DNA of 64,000 bases from Staphylococcus phage AH12, in sequence record OR455461.1; one strand, 5' to 3'. A program made the translations under genes and the position numbers. Positions within the stretch are counted from its first letter, which is position 1; the number at the start of each line of letters is the position of its first letter. Positions 7,284-10,814 of the stretch are shown here, one piece after another. The notes beneath the pieces were generated by a model, which made no database searches, had not been told where the DNA came from, and saw only the letters and a program-made list of their open reading frames with translations.

Positions 7284-8831
7284 CGAATCTATATTAACTT
7301 CATATAGATCCCAGACTATATCTTAAAGTCTATGAAGACCTTTCACTTATTTAGTCGTTGAAGCTCTTTAATTATATTTTCAATCTCTTTTAAATGGTCT
7401 TGTTTATAGTTTATTCTATAAAGAGGAATATTTTTATTGATACAATATTCATCTTTCATTTTATCTTTCATTCTAATCTCTTCTAATTTTTCTTTAGGAA
7501 ATCTGCTACTAGGATTTTTCCTAAAATGCTGTTCACCATCATATTCAATTAGTACATTATAATCTACTAAATAAAAATCAAATCTTAAATTTTGATTTAT
7601 TTTTAGATCTTCAAATGTTTTCTCAAACTCAACATTTGTATTCGTATCAATTAAATATTTTTCTATTTGACGGTGAGCTAATGAATTTGCATACTGTTTT
7701 GCACAAAAAGGACATTTATTTATAGAATCTTTAAAATATTCTGCTTTCATTTTAAAATTATTTCCACATTTTTTATGATGAAAATTGTAAATATTTTTAG
7801 TTCCCTTGAATTCATTATCTAGTATTAAATATTCATTTGAATTAAATTTTTTATTACATATTTCTAGAAATTCTTTTTTTGTTAAGAATTTATTCTCTAA
7901 GCTACAATGTGGACATTTATAATCATTATTTAACATATTATTTGCTAGCATATTAAAACTTCTGTTACATTTTTTATGAAGGAAATTATGTTTAGTTTTA
8001 ATTCCTTTAAACTTGTCATCTAATAATTCGTAATCATCATAATCTTTTCTATTTTCTTTCATTTTTTCATTAAATGACTTTTTATCGTATTTTAATAATT
8101 TAATTTTATCACAATTAGGACAAATAATAACATTATTTAAAAAACTTCCTCCGGTCATTTCAAATTCAGTTCCACAATCATCATGTTTAAATTTTGTTAT
8201 TTTAGAGAATCCATTATACTTTCCTAAAATAGAATACCCACTTATATTTTTCTCTTTTTTAGCCTTTTCTAAAAACTCTTCATTACTATATTTCACAGAG
8301 AAACAACAATTTGGGCATCGATTCATATTGTATAAAAATTCAGAACCTTTCATTGTAAAATATTTTCCACATTCTTCATGGTAAAACTTATGGTGTTTTT
8401 TAGTACTTTTAAAATCATCAATTAATTTATAACCTTCAGTACTTTTTCTTTTGTTTGCTTCTTCCATAAAAGTTTTATTATTGTATTTTAAACCATTTTC
8501 ACATTTAGGACATCTCTTAGAGTAATCTAAAAAACCTCTACCTGTCATTTCAAATTCAGTTCCACAATCAACATGTAATATTTTATGATTAAATTTATAA
8601 CCTTTATACTCTTCTAATAATTCATAATTTCCAATATTCTTTTCTTTTATTTTATTCATATATTCTTCATGTGTTAATTTTACCATTTATTTCCTCACCT
8701 TTCCAGACCAATAGAAAGGATTTTAATATAATTAAATTAGCATGCTGATTACTTTTAAAGCTTCTCAGCAATTAAAGTGATTTTTCATTTATTGTTACCA
8801 ATATAAGGAAGCTAAAACATAATTTGTCTTT
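7284..8831 (-). mobile_element. group I intron-like element carrying an endonuclease ORF (interrupts RNAP beta-like gene)
   Basis: The P/Q half is at about 8725-8790 (AUGCUGAUUA ... CUCAGCAAUUAA). The R/P8/S half is at 7311-7370. P9 hairpin GAUCUAUAU..AUAUAGAUUC is followed by G at 7284. The 447-aa ORF lies between the two halves and its C-terminus overlaps the R box. Confidence 0.5.
7343..8686 (-). CDS. intron-encoded zinc-ribbon-repeat protein with C-terminal PD-(D/E)xK (Vsr/DUF559-like) endonuclease domain; putative homing endonuclease
   Basis: Five repeats of an H-x2-CG-x2-F-x-M-...-CP-x-C zinc-ribbon unit; C-terminus RFDFYLVDYNVLIEYDGEQHF matches the Vsr/DUF559-type nuclease signature; the final codons (NLRQLNK) are encoded by the intron R box. 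Confidence 0.6.
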   Translation of the reverse strand: MVKLTHEEYMNKIKEKNIGNYELLEEYKGYKFNHKILHVDCGTEFEMTGRGFLDYSKRCPKCENGLKYNNKTFMEEANKRKSTEGYKLIDDFKSTKKHHKFYHEECGKYFTMKGSEFLYNMNRCPNCCFSVKYSNEEFLEKAKKEKNISGYSILGKYNGFSKITKFKHDDCGTEFEMTGGSFLNNVIICPNCDKIKLLKYDKKSFNEKMKENRKDYDDYELLDDKFKGIKTKHNFLHKKCNRSFNMLANNMLNNDYKCPHCSLENKFLTKKEFLEICNKKFNSNEYLILDNEFKGTKNIYNFHHKKCGNNFKMKAEYFKDSINKCPFCAKQYANSLAHRQIEKYLIDTNTNVEFEKTFEDLKINQNLRFDFYLVDYNVLIEYDGEQHFRKNPSSRFPKEKLEEIRMKDKMKDEYCINKNIPLYRINYKQDHLKEIENIIKELQRLNK

Positions 8832-9384
8832 ACTTCAGGTGATACAAATCTCCAACCATAAATGTTCTATTACTAACATCTAGTCGGTTTTTCTTAATAT
8901 TGTATTTATTGAATAAGTATCTGATTTGTTCAGATTCAATATTATCAAAGAAAGGTGCTTGATGAAGTACAATACCATTTTTAATAAAGTCTTCAATAGC
9001 TTCTTTAGTTTCTTCACTATCTAAACTATCAAATAATCTTACATAATTATCATAAGATACTTTATCTGCATCTTTGATATATTCTAATAAATATTCTTTC
9101 TGCTTATTAACATCATCTAACTTACTAATACGATGTCTAATAACGCTTGAAATATGATTTAATTCTAATTCCACTAATGCTGAAGGATTTCCTCTATTAA
9201 TAATACCCATATTATTATGAATTAAGTCTACTCTTTTCTTAATAGGAGTTTTATTATCTTTGGTGAAATCTTCTCCATCAAATTCAGTAATCATTGGCAT
9301 TTCATTATCTGGAACAATCTTAGCTACTACACCTTTTCCACCGTATCTTGTGCTTATTTTTGCATTTATGTTAATGAACTTCAT
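8830..9384 (-). CDS. rpoB-like: RNA polymerase beta-subunit fragment (exon c; real exon probably begins at 9362)
   Basis: KISTRYGGKGVVAKIVPDNEMPMI..GIINRGNPS matches the beta region [27 protein letters not shown]; it ends VGDLYHLK, comparable to VGYMYMLK. Confidence 0.7.
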   Translation of the reverse strand: MKFININAKISTRYGGKGVVAKIVPDNEMPMITEFDGEDFTKDNKTPIKKRVDLIHNNMGIINRGNPSALVELELNHISSVIRHRISKLDDVNKQKEYLLEYIKDADKVSYDNYVRLFDSLDSEETKEAIEDFIKNGIVLHQAPFFDNIESEQIRYLFNKYNIKKNRLDVSNRTFMVGDLYHLK

Positions 9385-9545
9385 AGACTTTACTAAGAAG
9401 ATCAGACTATATCATTACCTTCATATAAGGTAGAATATATTTAGTCGTTGAACACTATTTATAGTGATGCTGATTAATTTTATAATTCTCAGCAATTAAT
9501 ATTCTTTACATATAAATTTTCATTCATAAGGGACCTATTAATTTG
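9363..9545 (-). mobile_element. mini group I intron (183 nt) in RNAP beta-like gene
   Basis: The 5' exon ends GGAU and pairs with the IGS GUCC. Core boxes P, Q, R and S are present, with P3 GAAUAU/AUAUUC and P8 UACCU/AGGUA. The predicted join ...KKPLVHG|SKISTRYGGKGVV has exactly the same length as E. coli [25 protein letters not shown]. Confidence 0.6.
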
Positions 9546-10074
9546 ATCCATGCACTAAAGGTTTCTTCTCTAATACTTTAACTCTAAATACGATTTTATC
9601 AAATTGATTTCCATCATATACAAGTTTAGCATTAGGATCAATGTAGCTCTTAAATCTATTATAAGTTCTAATTAAATCATTACTAAATTTCTTCTTACGT
9701 ACAATATCATCAGTAACAGTTACAAATGTACGGTAGAAGTGTTCTAAATCTTTGATATATTTTAGGAATTGTTCAGAGTACTTTTCATTCTCTAATTTTT
9801 CAATTGATTCATTGTTAAGTACATCAATATCAATAACTTTACCATGCAATTTATAAGCGTTATCACTTTCAACAATTTTAGATAACATATCATTTTTAAA
9901 TTTATGGATTAACTCATCATAATTTAATCGTCTTGTTGCAGTTAATACACCGTCTTTAATTTCTTCACCAACGTCTGGAAATGCTTTATAATATTCTTCA
10001 TCTCCATAAATATTTAAAGGAATATCATTTGTATTTATAGTTACATTAACTACATGAACGAAATAACTTGACAT
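9538..10074 (-). CDS. rpoB-like: RNA polymerase beta-subunit fragment (exon b; real exon about 9546-10113)
   Basis: In-frame upstream of the annotated ATG is EDGIVVSESLAEK, comparable to beta EDSILVSERVVQE, with no start codon. The piece ends KIVFRVKVLEKKPLVHG, comparable to [19 protein letters not shown]. Confidence 0.7.
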   Translation of the reverse strand: MSSYFVHVVNVTINTNDIPLNIYGDEEYYKAFPDVGEEIKDGVLTATRRLNYDELIHKFKNDMLSKIVESDNAYKLHGKVIDIDVLNNESIEKLENEKYSEQFLKYIKDLEHFYRTFVTVTDDIVRKKKFSNDLIRTYNRFKSYIDPNAKLVYDGNQFDKIVFRVKVLEKKPLVHGSN

Positions 10075-10113
10075 TTTCTCAGCTAATGATTCTGATACAA
10101 CAATACCATCTTC

Positions 10114-10274
10114 CTATAGGTTATAATTAATAAAATTATACCATAGACTATATCATTACCGTTTAAGGTAGAATATATTTAGTCGTTGAACACTGTTTTT
10201 AGTGATGCTGATTAATTTAATAACATCTCAGCAATTAATATTCTTTACATACATAAATTTCTTTATGCAGGAAC
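10114..10274 (-). mobile_element. mini group I intron (161 nt) in RNAP beta-like gene
   Basis: The 5' exon ends AAUUUU and pairs with the IGS GAAAUU (U.G at the splice site). The intron ends ...CCUAUAG immediately before GAAGAUGGU. The predicted join ...KINF|EDGIVVSE matches the conserved beta motif NFEDSILVSE exactly. Confidence 0.65.
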
Positions 10275-10814
10275 AAAGTTAATTTTATTCGTGAATCCTT
10301 TATCTGGTAAAAATACTGAAGTAGCATTTGTACCATATTGGAAATTATTTGATTCTTCATCATAGTTTTGATCTTTATAAAGTACTTCATTTTTATTAAC
10401 ATTACTACCAATTTCTAAAGAATCAATTTTTTCATTTTGATATTTATTACCAAATTTCTCAGCTAAATGATTAGCTTCTTCTCTAATAATGATATCATAC
10501 TCATCATTATCTTTATACTTCACTAAATAGTATTTTACATATTTATTCTTTTCAAATATAAAAATAACTTCAAAATCTCTTTCAGCTTTCTTATAACCAG
10601 TTGAATATTTACCTACTTGATTCTCAAAACCAGTTTGAATTAATGGTGGTTCAGCTTCAGTTAATTGAATACATTGACCTATATGTGAAGTGAACATTTG
10701 TGATCTGTTACCATTAGTTCTATTAACATTAGGCATTAATAGTAATTCTGATAAAAATTCATGACTTTTCTTATCTTCAATCTCTTGCATTCTTTGTGTT
10801 CTTTCCTTTGTCAT
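10263..10814 (-). CDS. rpoB-like: RNA polymerase beta-subunit fragment (exon a, start of the beta C-terminal module; coding end at 10275)
   Basis: [29 protein letters not shown] resembles [44 protein letters not shown] resembles VAFMPWNGYNFED. Confidence 0.65.
   Translation of the reverse strand: [183 protein letters not shown]

Follow-up and report, generated by a model that had tools for sequence, protein, structure and literature searches.

The polymerase locus of the Staphylococcus phage AH12, included in the 64,000-nucleotide (nt) stretch of record OR455461.1 analyzed here and referred to as the window, raises the question of how many genes it contains. Three minus-strand open reading frames (ORFs) of 183, 178 and 184 amino acids are present at 10263-10814, 9538-10074 and 8830-9384, as described by an earlier inspection of the letters alone (the sequence-only reading), where they were taken as consecutive fragments of an RNA polymerase beta subunit, rejoined by splicing inside conserved motifs. 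They might be separate genes, remnants of a damaged one, or exons; in the last case, the end of the gene and the nature of the introns have to be established. The evidence reported below makes it very probable that a single minus-strand gene extends from 10814 to 6249, encoding the C-terminal half of a non-virion RNA polymerase beta subunit and interrupted by six group I introns.

A map of the gene was obtained by aligning to AH12 both the DNA and the protein of the ortholog from phage PALS_2, which is uninterrupted (2142 nt, 713 amino acids), and by direct reading of the sequence. Its elements are the following.

10287..10814, minus strand: exon 1, 528 nt, start codon at 10814, 3' end GGA TTC ACG AAT (..GFTN)
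10114..10286, minus strand: intron 1, 173 nt, group I, without ORF, final base G at 10114
9546..10113, minus strand: exon 2, 568 nt, opening with GAA GAT GGT (EDGIVVSE...) and closing with CAT GGA T
9363..9545, minus strand: intron 2, 183 nt, group I, without ORF
8832..9362, minus strand: exon 3, 531 nt, opening with CA AAA ATA AGC (..SKISTRYGGKGVV) and closing with CTG AAG T
7284..8831, minus strand: intron 3, 1548 nt, group I, with an ORF within the P6 loop
~8680-8784 and ~7311-7380, minus strand: the two halves of the intron 3 core, on either side of the ORF
7343..8686, minus strand: endonuclease ORF in intron 3, 447 amino acids
7264..7283, minus strand: exon 4, a 20-nt micro-exon, TA AAA CAT GAA CCA TCA GGT = ..KHEPSG
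7085..7263, minus strand: intron 4, 179 nt, group I, without ORF
7022..7084, minus strand: exon 5, 63 nt, KLSAKSIDFNNYSGIPTRTPD
6846..7021, minus strand: intron 5, 176 nt, group I, without ORF
6802..6845, minus strand: exon 6, 44 nt, SKFYRSRINNNPLR + GT
6634..6801, minus strand: intron 6, 168 nt, group I, without ORF
6249..6633, minus strand: exon 7, 385 nt with the stop codon counted, ..GEMETTNMMIGG... up to the C-terminus

Joined together, the seven exons form a frame of 2139 nt, coding for 712 amino acids without internal stops; the product is 83% identical to the PALS_2 ortholog from end to end, with zero gaps at the junctions. Introns make up 2427 of the 4566 nt of the gene. Five of them contain no ORF and are 168-183 nt long; in every intron an in-frame stop is found 2-57 nt past the 5' splice site. 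The start at 10814, as a gene of its own, had been correctly recognized by the sequence-only reading. Its end had been placed at 8830, where the stop codon lies within intron 3 and the gene continues to 6249; four exons (20, 63, 44 and 385 nt) and four introns were therefore missed. The three ORFs are indeed parts of one gene, while the two gaps between them become six, and the exons seven. The peptides predicted to span the junctions are GFTNEDGIVVSE, PLVHGSKISTR, YHLKLKHEPSGKLSAK, TRTPDSKFYR and NPLRVGEMETT.

Each junction is matched, at the nucleotide level, by the continuous sequence of a relative lacking that intron: Machias for junctions 1 and 2, PB50 for junctions 3 to 5, PALS_2 for junction 6. 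In Machias, for example, AAAGGATTCACGAAT runs directly into GAGGATGG across junction 1, while in PB50 CCTGAAGT is directly followed by TAAAACA across junction 3. For junction 2, the removal of 9363-9545 originally proposed (183 nt, ...PLVHGS joined to KISTRYGGKGVV) is exact. For junction 1, where 10114-10274 had been indicated, the 3' end at 10114 stands, while the 5' end is at 10286, 12 nt away. As noticed at that time, the codons for EDGIVVSESLAEK precede the ATG at 10074 in the same frame, immediately after a TAG at 10116-10114 and without a start codon. The residues KINF had been placed in the exon because of their likeness to the "NFED" of Escherichia coli; the junction KINF-EDG was discarded, as KINF is intronic and pairing of the guide sequence fits a cut between 10287 and 10286. 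All the orthologs without intron 1 (PALS_2, MarsHill, Machias) read TN directly followed by EDGIVV.

A frame that remains open over six junctions, and shows no gap there when compared to the uninterrupted PALS_2 protein, excludes a chance result. It also bears on the hypothesis of pseudogene decay, or of an artefact of assembly, in which the exons would be mere remnants. The reading frame is, in fact, broken by stops and non-coding insertions, as such a hypothesis requires; yet it is restored at all six junctions, with the identity to an intact ortholog given above and no internal stops, and identical introns occupy identical sites in independently sequenced phages. Furthermore, AR9-like phages need the non-virion polymerase for late transcription. 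A decayed or misassembled gene is, accordingly, hardly conceivable. Three other kinds of interruption were considered and discarded: inteins, because of the stop codons in the gaps; translational bypassing, as the gaps span 168-1548 nt and feature ribozyme-like folds; group II introns, as the gaps are far too small and domains V/VI are absent.

The identity of the product as the C-terminal half of a beta subunit is derived from its matches to AR9, phiKZ and bacterial beta chains. The spliced protein matches Pfam RNA_pol_Rpb2_6 (PF00562) with E=1e-9 (38.5 bits, against a cutoff of 23.4) and chain C of PDB entry 7S00 (7S00_C), the DNA-directed RNA polymerase of phage AR9, with E=2e-135. The latter alignment is continuous over residues 15-664 and therefore crosses all six junctions. 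The phiKZ chain 7OGP_C is also matched (E=1.5e-18), as are bacterial beta chains, at 1e-13; residues 352-627 align to residues 1050-1312 of E. coli beta. Homology covers both the full-length AR9 subunit and the catalytic domain of bacterial beta, as expected for a beta C-terminal half of the AR9 type. The comparison of the conceptually spliced protein with RpoB, suggested by the sequence-only reading, is thus positive with Pfam, AR9, phiKZ and bacterial sequences alike, in agreement both with the beta-like identity proposed there and with its view of AH12 as a jumbo phage carrying a non-canonical, multisubunit RNA polymerase, the best match being to the AR9 non-virion enzyme. Over the AH12 stretch 6000-12500, nucleotide identity is 95-96% with Machias and PB50, both Staphylococcus jumbo phages, and about 84% with PALS_2, S6, MarsHill and others. 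The organization of the beta C-terminal half as its own gene is known in these phages, as stated by Korn et al. (10.1101/2020.12.14.422802).

The type of intron, which the sequence-only reading had not named, is group I. All six introns, whose boundaries were set independently by alignment to uninterrupted orthologs, are preceded by U and end with G, the terminal omega-G. A P1 helix, composed of the U.G pair at the 5' splice site plus 3-8 bp, can be drawn for nine out of nine introns examined (the six of this gene and three located elsewhere in the window). The guide sequence begins at intron nucleotides 9-15 and covaries with the exon end (GAAU/GUUC, GGAU/GUCC, GGU/GCC, GAGU/GCUC and more); among random U-preceded sites of the window, only 24% attain 4 bp. 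In intron 1, P1 is GAAU/GUUC with the U.G pair, and P2 is capped by a GAAA loop.

All gaps share a strongly conserved core, where four blocks (AAUUGCUGAG, AAUCAGCA, GUUCAACGACUAAAU and GAUAUAGUCU) may be recognized, resembling the classical P, Q, R and S elements of group I introns. A covariance model of the core was built and run on the window and on the orthologous genes of Machias, PB50, LY01 and MarsHill. In the window it identifies the two halves of intron 3 and 10 complete copies, every one of them on the minus strand; complete copies are 24 in total. Over these 24 copies, helices P3, P4, P5, P6, P7 and P8 were counted, including the P3/P7 pseudoknot and the P4-P6 domain: pairing is found in 93% of the cells, versus 25-47% when the partners are slid by 1-3 columns. 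Changes on both sides occur in 17 of the 30 pairs, some of them in P3, P5, P6 and P8, and none of 500 shuffles attains the observed covariation values. Because the alignment was fitted to the model, these counts are tilted towards structure. P7 is invariant in all 24 copies (A[C]GACUA paired with UAGUCU); it contains the G-C pair next to a bulged nucleotide that is typical of the guanosine-binding site, a match of sequence pattern only. The minimum-energy folds of introns 1 and 2 independently yield P1, P2, P4/5, P6, P7, P8 and P9, with GAAA as the P2 loop and z-scores of about -2.3.

These data also address the possibility that the fragments are expressed as separate genes, whose translated products come together as a split beta subunit, just as the N- and C-terminal halves do in jumbo-phage polymerases, with no splicing involved. 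Jumbo-phage RNA polymerase subunits are truly divided among several genes, and the PB50 record lists four separate "non-viral RNA polymerase beta subunit" coding sequences (CDSs) for this gene. Nevertheless, the conserved EDGIVVSESLAEK codons are outside any ORF provided with a start codon, exons 4-6 have no start codons at all, and the ORF termini carry intron-derived residues foreign to the orthologs (KINFVPA*, MKFININ). Moreover, orthologs without interruption exist, while a covarying group I structure and the U/G splice-site rules are found in every gap. Separate genes are therefore highly improbable. Rejoining of the beta-like fragments by RNA splicing, inside conserved motifs, is supported instead by the uninterrupted ortholog, by the continuous match to 7S00_C and by the group I architecture of each gap.

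The behavior of the introns with the Rfam group I model, RF00028, is less straightforward. When short stretches are searched, matches are obtained for intron 2 (42.3 bits, E=6e-10, searched alone), intron 6 (42.4 bits, E=2e-9) and intron 5 (33.6 bits, E=8e-7). The alignment is end to end for all three, spanning model positions 1 to 253 for intron 2; P1, P2, P3, P4-P6, P7, P8 and P9 follow each other in the expected order. The matches surface only when about 200-650 nt are searched; scans of several kb at E<=10 miss the introns. The family differs from RF00028 in scoring 27-42 bits, under the 50 bits of Rfam's own calling rule. The Rfam nulls had first suggested a non-group-I element, an idea that was dropped once the core had been modelled by hand, its covariation analyzed and the introns searched singly with Rfam.

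Several points weigh against ordinary group I splicing, and are to be set against the evidence listed so far. No group I match is found by RF00028 at the gathering threshold in the whole window; a scan of 6100-10900 (4.8 kb) at E<=10 returns no group I intron, only chance snoRNA and miRNA matches; the best score, 42.4 bits, is below the gathering score of 50; and intron 4 is not reported at E<=0.01 even in a short-stretch search. In addition, the tilt of the covariation counts is in favor of structure, and P7, being invariant, offers no covariation evidence. The ORF-less introns are unusually small and strongly AT-rich, so that efficient folding may need a protein or some other helper, and self-splicing is to be regarded as putative. 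Finally, that the AH12 gene itself is spliced is something we infer. The RF00028 gathering score is, on the other hand, a curation threshold and not a biochemical criterion, and we conclude that the six gaps are compact group I introns falling under the Rfam threshold.

The small size and AT-rich composition of these cores make helper-dependent splicing possible. The introns would be removed at the same junctions, without being autonomous: a phage or host protein, acting as maturase or chaperone, or assistance given in trans by other intron copies, would be needed for folding and splicing. Such a dependence would fit introns of 168-183 nt, with even smaller ones (144-147 nt) elsewhere in the window, scores under the Rfam threshold, family members without P2 and P8, and z-scores of only about -2.3 for introns 1 and 2. 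The six introns of this gene, in contrast, keep all the core helices P1-P9, the pattern of the guanosine site and L2 loops of the GNRA type, and five of them have no associated maturase-like ORF. Compact bacterial group I introns, such as the tRNA-Ile intron of Azoarcus (about 205 nt), do self-splice. A need for helpers is, on the whole, unlikely, and ordinary group I splicing of a single pre-mRNA, followed by translation of the 712-amino-acid protein, is the best-supported reading. According to this reading, the whole gene would be transcribed into a single pre-mRNA, each intron folding into a group I core (P1-P9, with the P3/P7 pseudoknot). A free guanosine bound in P7 would attack the phosphate 3' of the last U of the exon, held by its U.G wobble with the internal guide; the 3'-OH of the exon would then attack behind the terminal G of the intron, and the exons would be ligated. 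Six such events would generate the 2139-nt frame and, from it, the 712-amino-acid subunit. Autocatalysis, guanosine dependence and autonomy are putative properties of these introns. The early in-frame stops of the introns may serve to release ribosomes entering unspliced RNA; in the introns of phage T4, such stops keep ribosomes off the ribozyme core.

The introns are not evenly distributed among closely related phages. Occupancy of the six sites, and of an additional one (I2') located about 22 nt downstream of the site of intron 2, is reported below, where I1 to I6 indicate the introns by number; for MarsHill, it was derived from DNA alignment.

AH12: I1+ I2+ I2'- I3+ I4+ I5+ I6+
Machias: I1- I2- I2'+ I3+ I4+ I5+ I6+
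PB50: I1+ I2+ I2'- I3- I4- I5- I6+
MarsHill: I1- I2+ I2'+ I3- I4- I5- I6+
PALS_2: no intron at any of the seven sites

At least four copies of the family are present in the orthologous gene of phage LY01. In MarsHill, I2 and I2' are both occupied, with a micro-exon of about 23 nt in between. The empty I2 site of Machias reads CAT GGG AGC AAA, where AH12 has CAT GGA T joined to CA AAA: the Gly-Ser pair is recoded synonymously at the insertion site.

Intron 3 features both hallmarks of a mobile intron, an endonuclease ORF in a peripheral loop and differential occupancy among relatives. The ORF matches the HNH, homing and intron-encoded nuclease families PHROG 559, 9084 and 7140 with E values from 1e-69 (PHROG 559) to 7e-12. 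It is composed of repeated CxxC modules, similar to zinc ribbons, followed by a C-terminal nuclease domain; Pfam zinc-ribbon matches are weak, and no significant match to this ORF was found in PDB. At the same site, Machias carries an ORF of 318 amino acids (2841-3797 of the extracted Machias stretch), versus 447 in AH12. Intron 3 is probably actively mobile. Introns 1, 2, 4, 5 and 6 have no ORF, yet their presence also varies among relatives; such differences between close relatives are expected for mobile elements. These five introns probably spread, or persist, by co-conversion when co-infecting phages recombine, or through endonucleases acting in trans. Introns 3, 4 and 5 are jointly present or absent across the compared phages, a pattern which fits the idea that ORF-less introns may hitch-hike on conversion tracts begun by the intron 3 endonuclease. 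The insertion sites fall within the beta motifs of highest conservation (EDGIVVSE, SKISTRYGGKGV, HLKLKHEPSGKLSAKS, PLRVGEME); insertion in conserved motifs is typical of homing sites.

The family is not confined to this gene. Eleven copies are found in the 64 kb of the window, all on the minus strand; the remaining ones interrupt gyrB and the gene for the N-terminal part of the virion polymerase beta subunit, as follows.

38996-38820, minus strand: first gyrB intron, 177 nt, same family
38225-38082, minus strand: second gyrB intron, 144 nt, same family
40511-38997, 38819-38226 and 38081-37908, minus strand: gyrB exons, with junctions joining TSDAD to DDGLHI and KGLG to EVNADEL
25451-28026, minus strand: virion polymerase beta (N-terminal) gene, with three family introns
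26354-26208 (147 nt), 26189-26011 (179 nt) and 25927-25748 (180 nt), minus strand: virion polymerase beta introns
26207-26190, minus strand: virion polymerase beta micro-exon, 18 nt, between the first two introns

Spliced GyrB is 760 amino acids long, exactly as the uninterrupted GyrB of S6; the virion polymerase beta gene splices in frame to a protein of 689 amino acids (..VPVGYLHVKRLYEVIVQQ..). In the Machias record, 96.6% identical here, three exons are annotated for the latter gene: one small (18-nt) exon or intron is probably missed. Directly upstream of the polymerase gene described above, a UvsX/RecA-like recombinase gene is located at 10971-12290 on the minus strand, with the same annotation in Machias and PB50.

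A blastn search with intron 5 finds 27 matching places in Machias, 29 in LY01, 17 in PB50, 11 in Madawaska and 8 in MarsHill; in a collection of 50,697 phage records, none was found beyond these Staphylococcus jumbo phages. Most copies of the family have no ORF, and they lie so close together that exons are reduced to as little as 18-20 nt. The 144-nt gyrB copy (38082-38225) and the 147-nt virion polymerase copy (26208-26354) are both without P2 and P8, P3' continuing directly into CAAAGAAGAUAUAGUCU; the former is aligned by RF00028 with P2 and P8 deleted, scoring 27 bits. A third P8-less copy is present in gyrB of LY01 (1263-1361 of the extracted LY01 stretch). As all of them sit in essential genes, these copies are presumably removed. 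To our knowledge, natural group I introns retain P8. A literature search for the smallest, or for P8-less, group I introns gave nothing useful. It may tentatively be proposed, with considerable doubt, that the introns constitute an expanded family of group I ribozymes, ultra-compact, so far undescribed and found in Staphylococcus jumbo phages alone.

Scanning IMG/VR for the core pattern gave one contig only, with no broad metagenomic distribution. This contig of an uncultivated virus, IMGVR_UViG_3300001528_000285 (GC content ~0.35), contains four larger relatives of the core (373-516, 795-948, 1347-1500 and 2924-3079), located between short ORFs, two of which end with ..INLFVA, while one contains a beta-prime-like VIINRNPT; an ORF of the GIY-YIG type is found at 1930-2634. 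It looks like another RNA polymerase gene, from a different phage, invaded by related introns.

The case of AH12 has close precedents. Multiple intron-disrupted genes, as in AR9, are described for MarsHill, Madawaska and Machias by Korn et al. (bioRxiv 2020, 10.1101/2020.12.14.422802; J Virol 2021): they include virion and non-virion polymerase subunits, gyrB, the DNA polymerase and terL, with exon number and position differing between the three phages. The mature AR9 mRNAs cited there were determined experimentally; for the Staphylococcus phages, in the passages of the paper considered here, exons are predicted by protein alignment only, and intron class, RNA structure and family copy number are not described. 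In GenBank, the annotated CDS of the same gene joins 6 exons in Machias and 4 in MarsHill (MW349128, MW248466). Gene and clade are the same, and AH12 is about 95% identical in nucleotides to Machias, with which it shares introns 3 to 6 at identical sites; introns 2 and 6 are shared, again at identical sites, with MarsHill. AH12 differs in combining introns 1 and 2, as in PB50, with introns 3 to 6, as in Machias, which results in seven exons. As the gene was already described by Korn et al. and by the GenBank joins, the AH12 case is a rediscovery; its combination of six introns is new.

Outside this clade, Lavysh and coworkers reportedly described in 2016 group I introns that interrupt RNA polymerase genes, among others, in the Bacillus jumbo phage AR9/PBS1. 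AR9 belongs to a related lineage, has intron-interrupted multisubunit polymerase genes, and its 7S00_C chain is orthologous to the AH12 spliced product; host and intron positions are different. Phage Twort, which also has a staphylococcal host, features several group I introns in one essential gene, at conserved codons, some with homing endonuclease ORFs. The introns are two or three in Twort and six in AH12, where exons are as short as 20 nt; Twort introns are considerably longer, and those of AH12 lack the P7.1/P7.2 extensions.

As to annotation, a single gene for a 712-amino-acid subunit should take the place of the three AH12 ORFs, with the small exons joined to them. The PB50 record (OR770614.1, 108986-111943), where the four separate CDSs are accompanied by a hypothetical protein, should likewise be one spliced gene, with introns 1, 2 and 6. 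Pipelines tied to Rfam thresholds overlook these introns; in the genome paper of DC4, a related phage, Rfam reported no introns.

For the specialist, the result repeats what is known of AR9-like and MarsHill-like phages, with little surprise. What is less ordinary is the density of the introns, the 18-20-nt exons and the 144-147-nt copies without P2 and P8. What could matter is the family itself, very compact and abundant, whose targets are the best-conserved catalytic motifs of polymerase and gyrase genes. Since phages that are 95% identical differ in occupancy, it is well suited to studying how ORF-less introns spread. With its P8-less members, nature would provide a test of how small a group I core can be. 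Interest in the miniature family would rise if its members self-splice; should the 144-147-nt variants do so, they would rank with the smallest group I ribozymes in nature, and P8 would be dispensable in a natural core.

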